Program-made: the position numbers and the translations under genes
Shown here: positions 42,672-48,798 of the stretch, piece by piece
Numbering within the stretch: position 1 is the stretch's first letter
Layout: each line of letters begins with the position of its first letter
From: a virus
Lineage: Duplodnaviria > Heunggongvirae > Uroviricota > Caudoviricetes
IMG/VR virus record: IMGVR_UViG_2718217885_000014
Location: 1 to 52,969 of that record
DNA length: 52,969 nt
Strand: one strand, 5' to 3'
Notes under the pieces: model-generated
Told to the model about the DNA's origin: nothing
Database searches by the model: none
What the model saw: only the letters and a program-made list of their open reading frames with translations

Positions 42672-43831
42672 TTACGCCCCCTTACCTCTGAAGAGTTCAG
42701 CGACGAATGAATAAGACGGGCAAGAAATGCCGCATCGTTAATTCGGTCATACAGACTTACAGCCAGCGGTGATTCAGCTTTTTCCAGCATGGGATAAAGC
42801 TGCTGCAACCAGACCTGATGAATTGATGAAATGTAGGAATAGAGTACGCTGGCGTTATGTGCAACGTCGCTCGGTACAGCGGGCTTTGAAAGCTGTTTCT
42901 CCATCTGGTTAAAGGCATTGATGTATGCCTCCTTGAACTGGGCTGCACGTTTGCCAGTGAAGCCCATTGCCAAGAACGCGAAGCCGTCGCGGGTGATGTG
43001 GTAGCAAGGAAGTTTGCGAGTACCGCCGTTGGGCTGGTGTACCCAAATTGATGTCTCCGCAAAATTGCGGGCACAAAACTCTGGAGAACAATCCAAAATG
43101 CGGATCTTTTTCAGAACATCGTCATGACGTTTAGAGAAGAAGTCAGCAACAGCCAAAGAAGATGTAACAGCCTGACCATCAACGATGGCAATTTCAGGTT
43201 GAGAGAGGGTTGGGAGAGTAGTCATGGTGACAGCCCCGGTAGTCAGTTTTTCAGAAAACTCACCACATGGGACGCCAATCACAGAGGTGGTGAGACGTAC
43301 AGGGTTGGCGTTACCGGAGACTACCGAACCCGGCCCGACCGAAGTCGGCCCTGTACGCCCCACCATAATTTGGGCGTAGCAATGCTCATGACACGAAAAA
43401 ACCGCATGAGCGCGGTTATGCTCAGTAATCAATTTCAGGACGCCAATCCCGGCACCCGTTTTATAAGGTGCCTGAACAGTGTAACGTCCCGGAATGGCAG
43501 AATCAATGTGCTGGTGGTCCTTCACACTCAACAAAATCACGCCTGAATTTCCACAAAGGACTAAAGCACTCATGCGGGTAGTCTTTGCGAAGATAGATAA
43601 CGCGCTGTGTATCTGGTTCCCAACGAATAACATGGACATAAAGCCCTCTTCCGTCACGAAACCAGCGGTTAAGTTCCTGCACAACTCGCCCCCCACAGTC
43701 AGGTAAAGTTCTCTGTGGTTACTTACAGCCAGGTGATTTGGTAATCTGCATTCATGCCGTAACAACAGGAGTTCAGCGACGCTGACCACCAGCTGTTGCG
43801 ACAAACGGTTATTTGCCGTTAAACTGTTCAT
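42668..43831 (-). CDS. Rha-family phage regulatory protein with about 200-aa N-terminal extension (possible alternative start at 43225)
   Basis: 387-aa ORF; residues from about 203 (MTTLPTLSQPEIAIVDGQAVTSSLAVADFFSKRHDDVLKKIRILDC) resemble the Phage_pRha domain; start ATG overlaps the stop of the upstream gene, supporting the long form; ATG at 43223-43225 would give 185 aa. Confidence 0.6.
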   Translation of the reverse strand: MNSLTANNRLSQQLVVSVAELLLLRHECRLPNHLAVSNHRELYLTVGGELCRNLTAGFVTEEGFMSMLFVGNQIHSALSIFAKTTRMSALVLCGNSGVILLSVKDHQHIDSAIPGRYTVQAPYKTGAGIGVLKLITEHNRAHAVFSCHEHCYAQIMVGRTGPTSVGPGSVVSGNANPVRLTTSVIGVPCGEFSEKLTTGAVTMTTLPTLSQPEIAIVDGQAVTSSLAVADFFSKRHDDVLKKIRILDCSPEFCARNFAETSIWVHQPNGGTRKLPCYHITRDGFAFLAMGFTGKRAAQFKEAYINAFNQMEKQLSKPAVPSDVAHNASVLYSYISSIHQVWLQQLYPMLEKAESPLAVSLYDRINDAAFLARLIHSSLNSSEVRGRK

Positions 43832-44379
43832 GCGTTAGTTTCTCCACAGACACAAAACGCCACGACGCCCGGAGCTGCACACTCGCGGGCGTCACTCTTT
43901 TCTGGAGCGCAAAAGATTTTGTAGACCAGTGCTGCATGCTCCTGGAGCTTCGAAATTGACAGATACAACTCATCATTAATTGCTGTCTGCTCGTGTGGCT
44001 CCACTACCCCATCTTCGATTGCCGAACGAATCTGCTTTGAGTAACTCCCGATCTGTTCGATGACTTCCAGCAGGCGCTGGTTTATATCGGCGTTCTCTAC
44101 TTCCTCAATTTCAGGAAGCGATACGAACACCCCACCAGCAGACTGTGCGACAGCATCCGCAATGTAGTGAGTGCCAGCTGCGCGCTGTAAAACCATTGCC
44201 CATCCCAGCGGGAAAATCTGATCGCCATCGGCACGAAGGCGGTTAAATAATGCGTTCTCTGTTACATCCAGCCAGTCAGCAGCTTCAGCGTAACCACCCG
44301 GCAACGCCGCGATAGTTTTTCTGACAGCTTTCACGTACCACTCAGGCTGTTTTTCTACTTTCCAGTGATGCTTACCCAC
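43828..44379 (-). CDS. hypothetical early protein in the cII position (YdaT-like, tentative)
   Basis: Proposed GTG start at 44377-44379 with GAGGAG Shine-Dalgarno 6 nt upstream; track ORF extends to 44490 overlapping cro; family assignment is a guess from position. Confidence 0.5.
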   Translation of the reverse strand: MGKHHWKVEKQPEWYVKAVRKTIAALPGGYAEAADWLDVTENALFNRLRADGDQIFPLGWAMVLQRAAGTHYIADAVAQSAGGVFVSLPEIEEVENADINQRLLEVIEQIGSYSKQIRSAIEDGVVEPHEQTAINDELYLSISKLQEHAALVYKIFCAPEKSDARECAAPGVVAFCVCGETNA

Positions 44380-44407
44380 GGTTAACTCCTCGTTTCTGTG
44401 GTTACGT

Positions 44408-44671
44408 TTACGCAACTGAACCGCTAACTTTTGAATAGCACTCTGGTAATCCATCATTTGGATTTGGATAAATATCAGGACGCAGCTCATGGGGGGTTAC
44501 GGACCAGTTCCCCAGCTCACAAAGTTGTAAAACTCGTTCCGACGGGACTTGATTGTTAATTACCCAATTAGCGACAGATTGAGTAGATTTAAAACCAAAG
44601 CGACGAGCTACTTCAGATAAAGACTTTCCCGCAGCCTTTACTGCTTTCTCGGTGTAGTTTTGAGATGACAT
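44408..44671 (-). CDS. cro: Cro-like HTH repressor
   Basis: 87 aa; HTH (LSEVARRFGFKSTQSVANWV); GAGGAG Shine-Dalgarno; divergent from cI across an operator/promoter region. Confidence 0.8.
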   Translation of the reverse strand: MSSQNYTEKAVKAAGKSLSEVARRFGFKSTQSVANWVINNQVPSERVLQLCELGNWSVTPHELRPDIYPNPNDGLPECYSKVSGSVA

Positions 44672-44698
44672 ATCTTTCTCCTCTGAAATCCAGAGGGG

Positions 44699-44741
44699 AT
44701 AATGCTACTTAAAGTAGCGAATTGCAACTACTTAAAATAGA
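44699..44741. promoter_or_regulatory. OR operator/promoter region (PR for cro, putative PRM for cI)
   Basis: Pseudo-palindrome GCTACTTAAAGTAGC (44704-44718) and related CTACTTAAAATAG (44728-44740); minus-strand PR: -35 TTGCAA (44722-44727), 17-nt spacer, -10 CATTAT (44699-44704); plus-strand TAAAAT (44733-44738) 5 nt before the cI ATG suggests a leaderless cI transcript. Confidence 0.6.
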
Positions 44742-44742
44742 A

Positions 44743-45483
44743 ATGACGAGCGTATGTGATGTGAGTAATCTTCTACCTATGGTAGAAGAACAGAAGTATC
44801 CAGATTTCGCCAAGAGACTAAACGAGTTAATGACAAACAAGGGAATTTCTGTCACCCAACTCAAAAGTCTTGTTGGCGTTACATATGAAATGGCGCGGCG
44901 ATACACAATCGGCGCAGCGAAGCCTCGTGCCTCTGTCATGAATAAACTTGCGTTGGCTCTGGGGGTATCGGCTTCATATTTAGAATATGGTGTTGGCGAG
45001 AGAGAAGGATGTAAGGAAATGGCAAGCATCCCCAATCCAACAAAACCCGACGTATACAGGATAGAAGTTTTAGATCTTAGCGTTAGCGCAGGACCTGGAA
45101 CCTATATGCTTTCAGACTATGTTGATGTGCTCTACGCCATTGAGTTCACAACAGAACATGCCCGTTCTCTTTTCGGTAACCGTTCTCAGGATGATATTAA
45201 GGTTATGACTGTAAATGGCGATAGTATGTCCCCTACTCTCGTTTCCGGAGATCGACTGTTTGTCGACATTTCTGTTCGTCACTTCCAGACTGATGGAATT
45301 TACTCTTTCGTTTACGGTAAGACTTTTCATGTTAAACGTCTTCAAATGCAAGGTGACAAGCTAGCCGTTCTTTCGGATAACCCTGCCTATGAGAAATGGT
45401 ACATCGATGAAAAATCGCAGGATCAGCTTTATGTAATGGGCAAGGCGTTGATTCATGAGTCAATAAAATACAATCGGTTATAG
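44743..45483 (+). CDS. cI: CI-type prophage repressor (XRE HTH plus S24 LexA-like autopeptidase domain)
   Basis: HTH (FAKRLNELMTNKGISVTQLKSLVGVTYEMARRY); S24 motifs VNGDSMSPTL (Ser) and FHVKRL (Lys); start uncertain (ATG 44743 chosen; in-frame ATG 44779 and track TTG 44722 are alternatives). Confidence 0.85.
   Translation: MTSVCDVSNLLPMVEEQKYPDFAKRLNELMTNKGISVTQLKSLVGVTYEMARRYTIGAAKPRASVMNKLALALGVSASYLEYGVGEREGCKEMASIPNPTKPDVYRIEVLDLSVSAGPGTYMLSDYVDVLYAIEFTTEHARSLFGNRSQDDIKVMTVNGDSMSPTLVSGDRLFVDISVRHFQTDGIYSFVYGKTFHVKRLQMQGDKLAVLSDNPAYEKWYIDEKSQDQLYVMGKALIHESIKYNRL
44771..44787. promoter_or_regulatory. 17-bp palindrome TTCTACC-TAT-GGTAGAA of unknown function
   Basis: Perfect 7-bp inverted arms with 3-bp spacer; differs from the OR/OL operator sequence; lies within or at the 5' end of cI depending on start choice. 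Confidence 0.35.
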
Positions 45484-45498
45484 TTCTAAGGGCATATA

Positions 45499-45846
45499 AT
45501 GGCTAGTGAGCAGGGATTCGAAAAGATTAACATGGATATGTTGGTCTCTTATTTCTCAGAAAAGAATATATATCTAAAATGTACACTATGTGGACACGAC
45601 AGATTGACTGTGCCTCAAGTCAGCGCGAATGTGGGCATGCCATGTACTATGAAACTTGGTAGTTATGTGAATGTTTTTACTGAAAAAAGCATTTATTCTG
45701 ATACTGCTAACCAGTATTACTTTTCACTAATATGCAACAATTGTGGAAATGAAATTCATATAAATGCGTTTTCAGTTTTGAACTGGGTAAATGAAAAGTT
45801 CCCAGCAAAAACGGAAGATGAAAAAAATGCCGACGCCGCAAAATAA
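45499..45846 (+). CDS. hypothetical protein with two CxxC motifs, first gene downstream of cI
   Basis: 115 aa; CTLCGH and CNNCGN motifs about 50 residues apart (possible zinc ribbon); starts 15 nt after the cI stop. Confidence 0.6.
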   Translation: MASEQGFEKINMDMLVSYFSEKNIYLKCTLCGHDRLTVPQVSANVGMPCTMKLGSYVNVFTEKSIYSDTANQYYFSLICNNCGNEIHINAFSVLNWVNEKFPAKTEDEKNADAAK

Positions 45847-46198
45847 TGTAGTACCATTTAATAGTGAACTTCCCACAATTAGAAGACACGGTGGAGATGG
45901 CGGAGGTGATGACATGCTTGAAGCCCGAGTCGCTAAGTTAGAAGCGAATGTTGAGGATATAAAAACAAATCTCGCAGAGATGAGAGCTGACATTCGTGAT
46001 TTGCGAAACGCTCTCTCCGACACCCGACGCGATGTCGCTGTTATCCTTCAAAAACAAATAGATATAGATGAAAAGTTGTCAAAAAAACCTAGCCTAAGTG
46101 AAGTCAACAGCGCTATTTCATCAGCCGTAAATAAACAGATCGCATGGACTGTTGCAACAGGCTTGGCGATTTTAGGTCTCGCCAAATTTATGTTTTGA
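45827..46198 (+). CDS. hypothetical coiled-coil protein with C-terminal transmembrane anchor, second gene downstream of cI
   Basis: About 123 aa from ATG 45827 (GGAAG 10 nt upstream); heptad-like region LEARVAKLEANVEDIKTNLAEMRADIRDLRNAL; C-terminal hydrophobic tail IAWTVATGLAILGLAKFMF; overlaps the 3' end of the preceding gene in another frame. Confidence 0.55.
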   Translation: MPTPQNNVVPFNSELPTIRRHGGDGGGDDMLEARVAKLEANVEDIKTNLAEMRADIRDLRNALSDTRRDVAVILQKQIDIDEKLSKKPSLSEVNSAISSAVNKQIAWTVATGLAILGLAKFMF

Positions 46199-46504
46199 TA
46201 AGTTTTTGACTATGACCTGCCCTAGTTTTCTTACTATCGAGGCTAAATCACACAATCCATTGAGTAGTAAATTCCCTACCGTTTTACACTTAGCCTCCAA
46301 AAACTCAACAATACTCTCATGATTGACTTCTCCCCACTTGATGATTAACTAGATCACATACTGATCTCAGCCACAATGAAACAATCCATCACGTTCTACA
46401 ACTCAGCTAACTTCACAATATAATTTTTTGATCATAGCCCCCAAAATATTTTACCTGTAAATTCAATGAATTAATTTCAAAATGCGTTTTTATGCCCTTA
46501 ACTT

Positions 46505-46541
46505 CTACTTTTTGTAGTTGATTTTTGCAACTTTAAGTAGC
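46505..46541. promoter_or_regulatory. OL operator/PL promoter region
   Basis: CTACTTTTTGTAG (46505-46517) and AACTTTAAGTAGC (46529-46541) share the CTAC..GTAG arms of the OR sites; possible plus-strand promoter TTGATT-17-CAATAT. Confidence 0.5.
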
Positions 46542-46669
46542 AATATCATTTTACCGACAACGAACAGGCAGGACGCCCACGAAGTAGCCGCCTGGGGCAT
46601 ATGAAGTCCAGGATGATTCGTTGAGTCATGTTGTGCCACTAGGCACTCATGTTAAAGCAGGTGTATGAA

Positions 46670-46945
46670 ATGAAAGTCCAGATTTTAAACAATAACTGTG
46701 AAGTCGTTTGGTCATACGACATAGCCGCCCCTGTAGATCAGAGCGGCGATAGCTGGACCAATGGGAAACATCAGATTATGGCTGGAGTTGTGTTCTCTTT
46801 ACGCCGTGCTTTGGAACAGGCTGAAGTATTTCCATCAGACCCTGAATGGAAATGGCCTTTTTCTATTTGTCCAAATTCGGAGAGCACATTTCAGAAAATT
46901 GGTCAGAAAGTCGCACTCGAAGAGCATCAGCCAACTGTTTCCTGA
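46670..46945 (+). CDS. hypothetical protein, first ORF after PL
   Basis: 92 aa from ATG 46670 with AGGTG Shine-Dalgarno; no recognisable family. Confidence 0.4.
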   Translation: MKVQILNNNCEVVWSYDIAAPVDQSGDSWTNGKHQIMAGVVFSLRRALEQAEVFPSDPEWKWPFSICPNSESTFQKIGQKVALEEHQPTVS

Positions 46946-47108
46946 TTTTTTCAGGTAACTCGTCGGCATCGCAGAAACAACAACGCTCGATCATGTTGAA
47001 AGCCGATTCGTAGAACTGTTTCTGCTGAGTGTCGCTGAGACAGGAAAAGAGCGACGTTACGATGATTTTATTAATTGCATTATCAAGTTCTTTTTCATCA
47101 AAAGTCAT
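46863..47108 (-). CDS. hypothetical protein, convergent with and overlapping the previous ORF
   Basis: 81-aa ORF with AAGGA Shine-Dalgarno; Cys-rich (CCFCD); overlaps 46670-46945 by 83 bp on the opposite strand, so one of the two may be spurious. Confidence 0.35.
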   Translation of the reverse strand: MTFDEKELDNAINKIIVTSLFSCLSDTQQKQFYESAFNMIERCCFCDADELPEKIRKQLADALRVRLSDQFSEMCSPNLDK

Positions 47109-47527
47109 TTGATTTTCCTTTTATGTATACGGGCTTAAAAGGATACCACCGAGCCTGAAGTGGTGAAAAGACAGGCACATAACAGCTAAGTATTTTCAAC
47201 CAAAGAGAATCCTTAGCGTTGTGGTGAATGCGGCTCAGCGCACGCGGGTTAAGGTTGAGGCTGACAGTCGACCTTCTGTGGATACCCACCCGTCTGGTGT
47301 GCAACCTTCGCCAGGCACCGGGAGGCACCCGACACCACAACTTTATGCTGTGTGTAGTCCTGGCGGTACCAGTTTGTACCCTTGCTTCCGGCTGGTACCG
47401 TCCTTTTTACAAAACAGAGAAGAGCATCACCGGACGACGGGCTCATAACCCAATCCAACCGGGCGGCTGCCACCGCAGGTGTTCTTCTCTGTTTTGTGGA
47501 GAAACCAACCGACCTTGCAGGGTCGAT

Positions 47528-47908
47528 ATGATGAGGAGCAGCAAAATGGCTAGCGAACGCAGTACTGATGTGCAGGCATTTATCGGGGAGCTGGACGGCG
47601 GCGTATTTGAAACCAAAATCGGCGCAGTTCTCAGTGAAGTCGCTTCCGGTGTGATGAACACGAAAACCAAAGGGAAGGTCTCACTCAACCTGGAAATCGA
47701 ACCATTTGATGAGAACCGTGTGAAAATCAAACACAAACTCTCATATGTTCGCCCGACTAACCGCGGGAAAATTTCCGAAGAAGACACCACCGAAACGCCG
47801 ATGTATGTCAATCGCGGTGGTCGCCTGACTATTCTGCAGGAAGACCAGGGACAATTACTGACTCTTGCCGGTGAACCTGACGGAAAACTACGCGCAGCAG
47901 GTCATTAA
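47528..47908 (+). CDS. hypothetical early-left protein (YfdP-like)
   Basis: About 126 aa from ATG 47528 (MMRSSKMASERSTDVQAFIGELDGGVFETKIGAVLSEV); the upstream 100 codons of the track ORF look non-coding. Confidence 0.6.
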   Translation: MMRSSKMASERSTDVQAFIGELDGGVFETKIGAVLSEVASGVMNTKTKGKVSLNLEIEPFDENRVKIKHKLSYVRPTNRGKISEEDTTETPMYVNRGGRLTILQEDQGQLLTLAGEPDGKLRAAGH

Positions 47909-47973
47909 TATCGTTCTTAATTAACTGATTATTTATCTCATCACTGAATATCTTTATATAGTGAGGACTTATT

Positions 47974-48798
47974 ATGTCTCAGAACTTAGACGCAACCGCA
48001 ATTAATCAAATCCATGCCCTTATTTCTGCTCAGGGTGTTAATGAAATTATCAGTAAGATTGGTGCCGATGCTGTGGCATTGCCTGAGAATTTCCGCATTC
48101 ATGATCTGGAAAAATTTAATTTAAATCGTTTCCGTTTCCGTGGTGCGCTTTCCACTGCAAGCATCGATGACTTTACCCGTTATTCTAAAGATCTTGCAGA
48201 TGAAGGCACCCGCTGCTTTATCGATGCTGATAATATGCGTGCCGTCAGTGTGCTTAACCTGGGTACTATTGATGAACCAGGTCACGCAGATAACACCGCC
48301 ACTCTCAAACTGAAAAAGACAGCACCGTTCTCTGCTCTGTTGTCTGTTAATGGCGAGCGTAACTCCCAGAAATCACTGGCAGAATGGATTGAAGACTGGG
48401 CCGACTACCTTGTGGGCTTTGATACTAATGGTGACACCATTCAGGCAACAAAAGCGGCTGCGGCGGTCCGTAAAATCACGATTGAAGCGAACCAGACCGC
48501 TGATTTTGAAGATAATGACTTCAGCGGCAAACGCTCTCTGATGGAGTCTGTCGAAGCGAAAACCAAAGACATTATGCCAGTGGCATTTGAATTTAAATGC
48601 GTTCCGTTTGAAGGCCTGAAAGAACGTCCGTTTAAATTACGCCTCAGCATTATCACTGGCGATCGTCCTGTACTGGTTCTGCGCATTATTCAGCTGGAAG
48701 CGGTGCAGGAAGAAATGGCTAACGAATTTCGTGATCTGCTTGTTGAGAAATTCAAAGACAGCAAAGTAGAAACCTTCATTGGTACTTTCAGCGCCTGA
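47974..48798 (+). CDS. yfdQ: DUF2303-type prophage protein (YfdQ-like)
   Basis: 274 aa, the length remembered for K-12 YfdQ; gene order YfdP-Q-R-S-T preserved. Confidence 0.6.

Follow-up and report, generated by a model that had tools for sequence, protein, structure and literature searches.

In phage lambda, cro and cII are transcribed in one direction and cI with its accessory genes in the other, followed by the leftward promoter PL. The switch has three right operators (OR1 to OR3) and three left operators (OL1 to OL3), and the maintenance promoter of the repressor gene, PRM, lies between OR2 and OR3. Here, we analyze the corresponding region of a prophage contained in IMG/VR record IMGVR_UViG_2718217885_000014, of which the whole stretch of 52,969 nucleotides was considered (called the window below). 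The region is the immunity module of an Escherichia coli lambdoid prophage of the SfV/e14-like group. To judge from its sequence, it is an ordinary lambda-type immunity region and represents a new specificity of a well-known kind of switch. We consider it reasonably probable that it forms a lambda-type lysis-lysogeny switch with an uncharacterized immunity specificity, in which transcription from PRM starts at or next to A44779, the first base of a cI start codon, and a second start codon is used on longer transcripts.

The closest functional parallels are lambda and the prophages Rac and CP-933P, of which the latter two are no homologs. The likeness to lambda comprises gene order and orientation, a repressor with a helix-turn-helix and an S24 domain, palindromic operators over the outward promoters, a 23-bp operator spacing, a proposed maintenance promoter between OR2 and OR3, and a repressor mRNA that is probably leaderless. 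In contrast to lambda, the operators are 13-bp CTAC-N5-GTAG sites instead of 17-mers, and OR3 lies 45 bp from OR2 on the start codon, whereas lambda OR3 covers PRM from the -10 to the -35. Furthermore, only two sites were detected at OL, Cro is a YdaS-family protein, the cII-like protein is of the CP76/YmfL type, and an in-frame ATG lies inside the PRM -35 hexamer.

RacR of the K-12 Rac prophage has three inverted-repeat operators, with O1 over the ydaS promoter and the center of O3 on the A of the racR ATG (PMC9638921). The strongest racR promoter, PracR3, gives a leaderless transcript by primer extension, and its -10 is located 8 nt before the ATG (PMC9638921). The module in the window likewise has three operators, the third centered on the repressor ATG, and a divergent partner of the YdaS type. 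The differences concern the operator sequence (TAGGC-n3-GCCTA for RacR), the S24 domain, which RacR lacks, the operator spacings (26 and 61 bp in Rac versus 23 and 45 bp here), and the upstream ATG, which is directly followed by a stop codon in Rac but opens an uninterrupted frame here. BLASTP gave no significant homology to RacR for cI (E = 0.07) or for a RacR-sized relative (E = 0.38), which sets cI apart from the RacR family. With other operators and no detectable homology, only the layout is shared.

In prophage CP-933P of E. coli O157:H7, the repressor gene paaR2 is leaderless, as established by 5' RACE, N-terminal sequencing, and mass spectrometry, and both an OR and an OL set are bound by PaaR2 and a YdaS-type Cro at overlapping sites (PMC8630535). 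The module analyzed here shares with CP-933P the OR and OL sets, the YdaS-type Cro, and accessory genes downstream of the repressor. The PaaR2 operator consensus is different (GTTTAGTAA), the downstream genes of CP-933P are a toxin-antitoxin pair, and PaaR2 (about 15 kDa), judged from its mass, has no S24 domain, unlike cI. Phage HK639 resembles the module in another part: its cI is also followed by accessory genes and PL, and the C-terminal S24 oligomerization domains are 73% identical. The N-terminal domains are only 37% identical, and HK639 has three copies of another operator (ATAAC-N4-GTTAT), which are spaced by 24-26 bp and located without exception upstream of its cI ATG. The immunity specificity therefore differs, and the module is not of the HK639/HK022 type. 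Compared in this way, cI is a domain mosaic, and the combination of a similar C-terminal domain with another N-terminal domain and other operators ties CTAC-N5-GTAG to the N-terminal domain.

Operator Sites of the Immunity Module

We found five sites that read as one kind, not as four plus one, three of them between cI and cro and two beyond the genes that follow cI (Table 1). The repressor is predicted to recognize these 13-bp CTAC-N5-GTAG sites. A preceding sequence-only reading had reported four near-copies of one pseudo-palindrome, two between cI and cro and two at 46505-46541, and all of them were located at these places. A search of the window for CTACTTAAAGTAG with up to two mismatches yielded seven strand-matches, which correspond to these four sites (at 44705, 44728, 46505, and 46528) with none elsewhere; shuffled sequences had a mean of 0.38 strand-matches and 0 out of 100 shuffles reached seven. 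OR1/OR2 and the OL pair are 1.8 kb apart and have an identical center-to-center spacing of 23 bp. In most relatives, OR2 is a weaker copy with one or two outer mismatches.

Table 1. Coordinates of the proposed regulatory features and of the genes of the immunity module in the window.
Feature	Position	Strand	Sequence and remarks
OR1	44705..44717	none	CTACTTAAAGTAG; 15-bp form GCTACTTAAAGTAGC at 44704-44718; conserved in relatives
OR2	44728..44740	none	CTACTTAAAATAG; 23 bp from OR1; ends 2 bp before the PRM -35
OR3	44773..44785	none	CTACCTATGGTAG; 45 bp from OR2; one of three exact CTAC-N5-GTAG copies in the window
OL distal site	46505..46517	none	CTACTTTTTGTAG; directly upstream of the PL -35; conserved in 20 related loci
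OL proximal site	46528..46540	none	CAACTTTAAGTAG; 23 bp from the distal site; within GCAACTTTAAGTAGC at 46527-46541
Proposed PRM -35	44743..44748	+	ATGACG; also the upstream in-frame ATG
Proposed PRM -10	44766..44771	+	TAATCT; 17 bp after the -35; 7 nt between the -10 and A44779
Proposed PR	44699..44727	-	-35 TTGCAA (44727-44722); 17-bp spacer with OR1; -10 CATTAT (44704-44699); read from the sequence
Proposed PL	46518..46546	+	-35 TTGATT (46518-46523); 17-bp spacer with the proximal OL site; -10 CAATAT (46541-46546)
cI repressor	44779..45483	+	234 aa from ATG 44779, beginning MVEEQK; 246 aa from the alternative ATG 44743, beginning MTSVCDV
cro-like gene	44408..44671	-	87 aa; YdaS-family helix-turn-helix; Pfam PF15943, E=4.6e-11; PHROG 35 (transcriptional repressor)
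Two-gene cassette between cI and OL	45499..46198	+	45499-45846 and 45818-46198; PHROG families without known function

A search for the half-sites elsewhere in the prophage had been recommended by the same reading. Exact CTAC-N5-GTAG copies occur three times in 53 kb, all in the immunity region, compared to 0.26 expected. When one mismatch is allowed in the eight outer bases, the eight matches found are not above chance (8.97 expected). As this raw count is at chance level, the signal lies in the clustering, the exact copies, and the conservation of the sites. Both the presence of three CTAC-N5-GTAG sites in the cI-cro intergenic region over divergent promoters and the second operator set at the leftward promoter beyond cI are traits of a lambdoid immunity region.

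At 46460-46472, 33 bp before the distal OL site, lies a perfect 13-bp palindrome, AATTCAATGAATT, with a sequence unrelated to CTAC-N5-GTAG.

The Third Operator Across Related Repressors

OR3 sits within a perfect palindrome of 19 bp (CTTCTACC-TAT-GGTAGAAG, 44770-44788), the center of which is the A of ATG 44779. The sequence-only reading had recognized this palindrome, in a slightly shorter form, and its overlap with the ATG, but regarded it as separate from the other sites and as the target of a different protein, possibly Cro. This separation is not supported, given that the palindrome contains CTAC-N5-GTAG like the other sites and is conserved together with the DNA-binding domain of the repressor, even at Acinetobacter loci without a detectable Cro homolog. 

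The comparison is based on a search of one genome per species with the repressor N-terminal domain alone, which gave 43 loci from Enterobacterales, Acinetobacter, Haemophilus/Aggregatibacter, Psychrobacter, and beta-proteobacteria. Three CTAC-N5-GTAG sites with the organization O1-(21-24)-O2-(44-45)-O3 are present in about 40 of the 47 compared loci, which include the window. The center of O3 is an ATG in the Enterobacterales. It is mostly no ATG in Acinetobacter (one ATG and a few TTG or GTG), where the annotated-type start is located downstream, and Haemophilus has AAGGAG and an ATG downstream of O3. Since O3 is kept even without a central ATG, it is a DNA element and not a by-product of Met-Val-Glu coding. 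The Enterobacterales loci encode a Cro homolog with 58-71% identity; no Cro homolog was detectable at the Acinetobacter loci, though all three sites are present there. The sites thus follow the repressor domain, and on these comparisons OR3 is the most fitting name for the palindrome at 44779. Cro may well be a second ligand of OR3, as the analogy with lambda and CP-933P suggests.

Two variations were observed among the relatives. Strain A25 carries the same N-terminal domain on a short C-terminus without an S24 domain, beside ydaS, ydaT, and dicB. In most Acinetobacter relatives (loci L026-L049), the repressor frame extends without a stop codon for 69-378 nt beyond the upstream side of O3, crossing O2 and O1 and entering sequence antisense to the divergent gene, which is surprising for AT-rich DNA.

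The Proposed Maintenance Promoter and the Probable Start of cI

The loci compared share one skeleton between O2 and O3, consisting of 2 nt, a -35-like hexamer, 17 variable bp, TAnnnT, one base, and O3. The -35-like hexamer is ATGACN in Enterobacterales, TTGGTG in Acinetobacter, and TTGAAT in Haemophilus. A pattern scan with the N27 spacer added at least 119 viral contigs and 84 metagenome contigs; searches for N26 or N28 variants found none, compared to at least 119 viral contigs with N27. The information profile of 35 diverged sequence clusters has two conserved hexamers and a spacer with almost no information. TAnnnT is present in all 79 unique sequences, even though the first T falls on a wobble position when read in frame with the upstream ATG. 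Counting from the end of the -10, A44779 is the eighth base and follows a pyrimidine, which is a normal position for a start site; transcription usually starts 6-9 nt after the -10.

Neither ATG 44743 nor ATG 44779 is preceded by a ribosome-binding site, and the cro-like gene has GAGGAG upstream, as read from the sequence. Homologous repressors have their N-terminus at most a few residues from the 44779 Met, and the NCBI pipeline annotates cI from 44779 in identical genomes. Based on this pattern, cI most likely starts at ATG 44779, not at ATG 44743, and the 5' end of the maintenance transcript most likely lies at or next to A44779, which would result in a leaderless cI mRNA. A promoter downstream of O2 is the sole arrangement that would be active with O1 and O2 filled, which argues for a maintenance start at or next to A44779.

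A leaderless cI had also been proposed by the sequence-only reading, and this idea probably holds, but for ATG 44779 with TAATCT and not for ATG 44743 with TAAAAT. The hexamer TAAAAT is indeed present (44733-44738), at a distance of 4 nt from ATG 44743 and not 5 nt as had been given. If cI were to start leaderless at 44743, with this hexamer as a -10 inside OR2 and the palindrome at 44779 left to another protein such as Cro, the near-invariance of ATG 44743 (77 out of 79), the frame that is always open, and the lack of a ribosome-binding site before the ATG would be accounted for. The NCBI pipeline also picks the equivalent ATG in Nissle 1917 and A25, and an in-frame TTG still further upstream in CX12. 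However, a gap of 4 nt up to the ATG is shorter than a normal start site requires, and several relatives no longer have the first T of TAAAAT (CAAAAT, AAAAAT). The -10 would lie inside OR2 and the -35 inside OR1, so that this promoter would be off just when repressor must be made in the lysogen. In addition, the palindrome is a CTAC-N5-GTAG site that follows the repressor domain and not Cro, the invariant TAnnnT at a wobble position within supposed coding sequence is left unexplained, and homologous repressors begin near the 44779 Met. We consider this model improbable.

A related possibility is that cI is translated from 44743 only, on an mRNA that has a leader or almost none and is transcribed from a promoter around OR1/OR2, with OR3 and TAnnnT inside the coding sequence and acting as an internal roadblock operator only. 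The open frame and the conserved ATG agree with it, and Rac offers a precedent, having RacR-type half-sites within the racR coding sequence and several racR promoters (PMC9638921). Such an organization, however, would leave no promoter free of repressor when OR1 and OR2 are occupied, and it does not explain the footprint of a -35, a variable 17-bp spacer, and a -10 ending 7 nt before the ATG. It is therefore highly improbable in our judgment. 

With the maintenance start placed at A44779, the same skeleton is combined with a predicted leaderless start in Enterobacterales and with a ribosome-binding-site start in Haemophilus, which offers a natural comparison for the origin of leaderless repressor genes.

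The Upstream ATG

We first regarded the upstream ATG as a -35 hexamer and nothing else, a view that was revised after a stop-codon test. In 19 Enterobacterales-type loci from the protein search, the 36 nt between the two ATGs contain no in-frame stop (spacer shuffles, P ~0.003). Among the 35 diverged clusters, in-frame stops are found in 0/35, compared to 14/35 and 12/35 in the other two frames. With a chance rate of roughly one-third per lineage, the rough probability of 0/35 is below 1e-5, before allowing for relatedness. The upstream triplet is ATG in 77 of the 79 unique sequences and never TTG, though TTG would be the better -35. The residues encoded by the 12 upstream codons are not conserved, and the 36-nt stretch has no third-position excess, with 23, 21, and 22 variable columns at the three codon positions versus 90, 76, and 128 in the adjoining downstream coding sequence. 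An open frame without conserved residues suggests a stretch that is read by ribosomes without its sequence mattering. On these grounds, ATG 44743 is probably also translated, presumably on longer transcripts.

The absence of amino-acid conservation and of a third-position excess would fit a single start at 44779, with the upstream ATG as an untranslated -35 and a frame kept open by shared ancestry or composition. Homologs from other clades lack the extension, and the annotation of identical genomes uses 44779. Against such a single start stand the contrast between 0/35 clusters with an in-frame stop and the 34-40% in each other frame, the A that is kept at the first -35 position in 77/79 although T is closer to the consensus, and the finding of no variant one base longer or shorter. 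We regard the single start at 44779 as unlikely.

As an RNA, OR3 is predicted to fold into a 9-bp hairpin (-11.6 kcal/mol), which points to how two starts might be used. On longer, establishment-type transcripts, AUG 44779 would be buried in the OR3 hairpin and would lack a ribosome-binding site. Translation of these transcripts would start at AUG 44743 and add a 12-residue N-terminal extension of unconstrained sequence. The leaderless PRM transcript would begin inside the hairpin, so its AUG would be free. We therefore tentatively suggest, as a possibility that we would put somewhat below an even chance, that two in-frame starts built into the repressor's own promoter give rise to two repressor forms, a leaderless form of 234 aa in the lysogen and a form of 246 aa from longer establishment transcripts. 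If true, this would explain the A kept at the first -35 position, the fixed 36-nt spacing, and the absent in-frame stops. The open frame from an ATG in a -35 hexamer is the sole feature of the module that is likely to surprise a specialist, and it poses a small, testable puzzle on the translation of leaderless genes from longer transcripts.

Proposed Outward Promoters and the Boundary at PL

The two outward promoters are proposed to share a common layout, in which the distal operator abuts the -35, the proximal operator occupies the 17-bp spacer, and the -10 follows. On the transcribed strand (5' to 3'), the PR end reads CTATTTTAAGTAG-TTGCAA-TTCG-CTACTTTAAGTAG-CATTAT and the PL end reads CTACTTTTTGTAG-TTGATT-TTTG-CAACTTTAAGTAG-CAATAT. 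The PR layout recurs in relatives, for instance as TTGATT-17-CATTAT in locus L012. The PL layout is kept in 20 loci, with TTGACA or TTGATT, 4 nt, the operator, and then CATTCT, CTATAT, or TATTAT; the hexamers of these relatives, such as TTGACA, are often closer to the consensus than those of the window.

Relatives of the same immunity that carry other cassettes, such as a ParA-family gene, retain both operator sets. Phage SfV, which has another cI and other operators, is 98.6% identical to the window from 46557 onward, i.e., 10 bp past the proposed PL -10. Identity that resumes right after PL is the usual signature of an immunity-module boundary. The retention of both operator sets and the SfV joint at PL thus support the OR/OL reading well. 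The earlier proposal that OR and OL flank a unit of cI plus cassette is supported by these two observations and by the common layout of PR and PL.

The early-left leader and the first gene beyond PL (46649/46670-46945, PHROG 3195, function unassigned) are common to different immunity types. When 44000-48000 was searched against Rfam, no antiterminator RNA comparable to putL of HK639 was found after PL. The only match was a sub-threshold one to the gammaproteobacterial small RNA STnc100 downstream of PL (47196-47411, plus strand), which spans the full model length at E = 2e-4 and scores 32 bits versus a gathering threshold of 47. The best match of a consensus promoter scan of 44400-46800, TCTACA-18-TATAAT (10/12, plus strand, 46395-46424), is located 80 bp upstream of OL; it fits no model and was rejected.

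Operation of the Proposed Switch

From the observed sites, their spacing and conservation, the promoter-like footprint, and the open frame, we infer how the switch could operate, from repressor binding to the use of the two starts. PR, with OR1 in its spacer, would drive cro and the cII-like ymfL. OR2 would be positioned just upstream of both the PR -35 and the PRM -35, and the OL pair would mirror the OR1/OR2 layout at PL, beyond cI and the variable cassette. With repressor bound at OR1/OR2 and at the OL pair, both PR and PL would be shut. Cooperative binding in pairs is suggested by the 23-bp spacing, and looping between OR and OL is possible. PRM (ATGACG-17 bp-TAATCT), between OR2 and OR3, would produce the leaderless cI mRNA, OR2 beside its -35 could activate it as in lambda, and OR3 would shut it off at a high repressor concentration.

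Several points weigh against this reading. OL has only two sites, compared to three in lambda and CP-933P; the positions 23 and 45 bp upstream of 46505 were inspected for a third one, with a negative outcome. Agreement of the promoters with the sigma-70 consensus is poor (PR 8/12, PL 7/12, PRM 7/12), and the consensus scan flagged none of PR, PRM, and PL. It missed them because of these low scores of 7-8/12, and the promoter calls therefore rest on the comparative footprints. With A44779 as +1, the center of OR2 is at about -45. The center of lambda OR2 is at about -42, and this difference makes lambda-like activation by OR2 uncertain. Regarding the second start, the lineages behind the open-frame statistic are not fully independent, and the fixed 36-nt distance could stem from promoter/operator geometry instead of the reading frame. 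A cII-dependent establishment promoter was sought and none was identified, which leaves the longer transcripts with a hypothetical origin.

This module does not alter the general view of lambdoid switches. Its five sites and three promoters provide targets for footprinting, a means of predicting shared immunity, and candidates for orthogonal repressor-operator pairs.

Genes and Distribution of the Module

The divergent arrangement of a repressor with helix-turn-helix and S24 domains and a cro-like gene is that of a lambdoid immunity region. The N-terminal helix-turn-helix domain of cI (Pfam HTH_3) carries the motif YEMARRYT, and the C-terminal domain is an S24 self-cleaving peptidase (Pfam Peptidase_S24). 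The motifs VSAGPG (Ala-Gly), GDSM, and KRL are visible in the cI alignment; we take the first to be the S24 cleavage site and the other two to be the Ser/Lys catalytic pair. A PDB sequence search with cI gave no match. The cro-like gene is labeled as transcriptional regulator in the annotation of identical genomes. The cII-like gene, ymfL, belongs to the CP76/YmfL family of phage 186 and is encoded on the minus strand.

The two genes between cI and OL belong to PHROG 4293 and PHROG 3556, the second being coiled-coil-like. PADLOC gave only weak matches of the coiled-coil type for these genes, none of them convincing. Between cI and OL lies a swap site, which in relatives of the same immunity holds a ParA-family gene or other small genes (L003, 2854-3930; L004, 2728-3719; L008, 4078-5163). 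On the lambda map, the equivalent slot is occupied by rexAB. This rexAB-like position makes a role of the cassette in exclusion or defense worth testing.

Several complete E. coli chromosomes contain an identical copy of a 2.4-kb stretch of the module, and 80% or more of its length is present in 16 genomes, among them strains 09-00049 and KFu022. The core of the immunity type, which comprises cro start, intergenic region, and cI start, was found with an identity of at least 92% in approximately 205 of 5,426 complete E. coli genomes. Among deposited phage genomes, none contains the region in its entirety. A literature search with four operator variants gave only unrelated matches, and none of the searched papers contains these sequences. 

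The same immunity type (92.5% identity), including the operators, is also located on the 205-kb E. coli plasmid pEND_Eco 18005 (NZ_CP126947.1; L009, 3000-5500), which suggests either a prophage integrated in a plasmid or a phage-plasmid. On the other side of the module, just past the cII-like gene (window 43500-43830), a truncated DUF4222 pseudogene annotated by NCBI in an identical genome (L001, 2288-2383) overlaps the beginning of a gene for a Rha-family regulator. The early region on the replication side may be partly decayed or rearranged.

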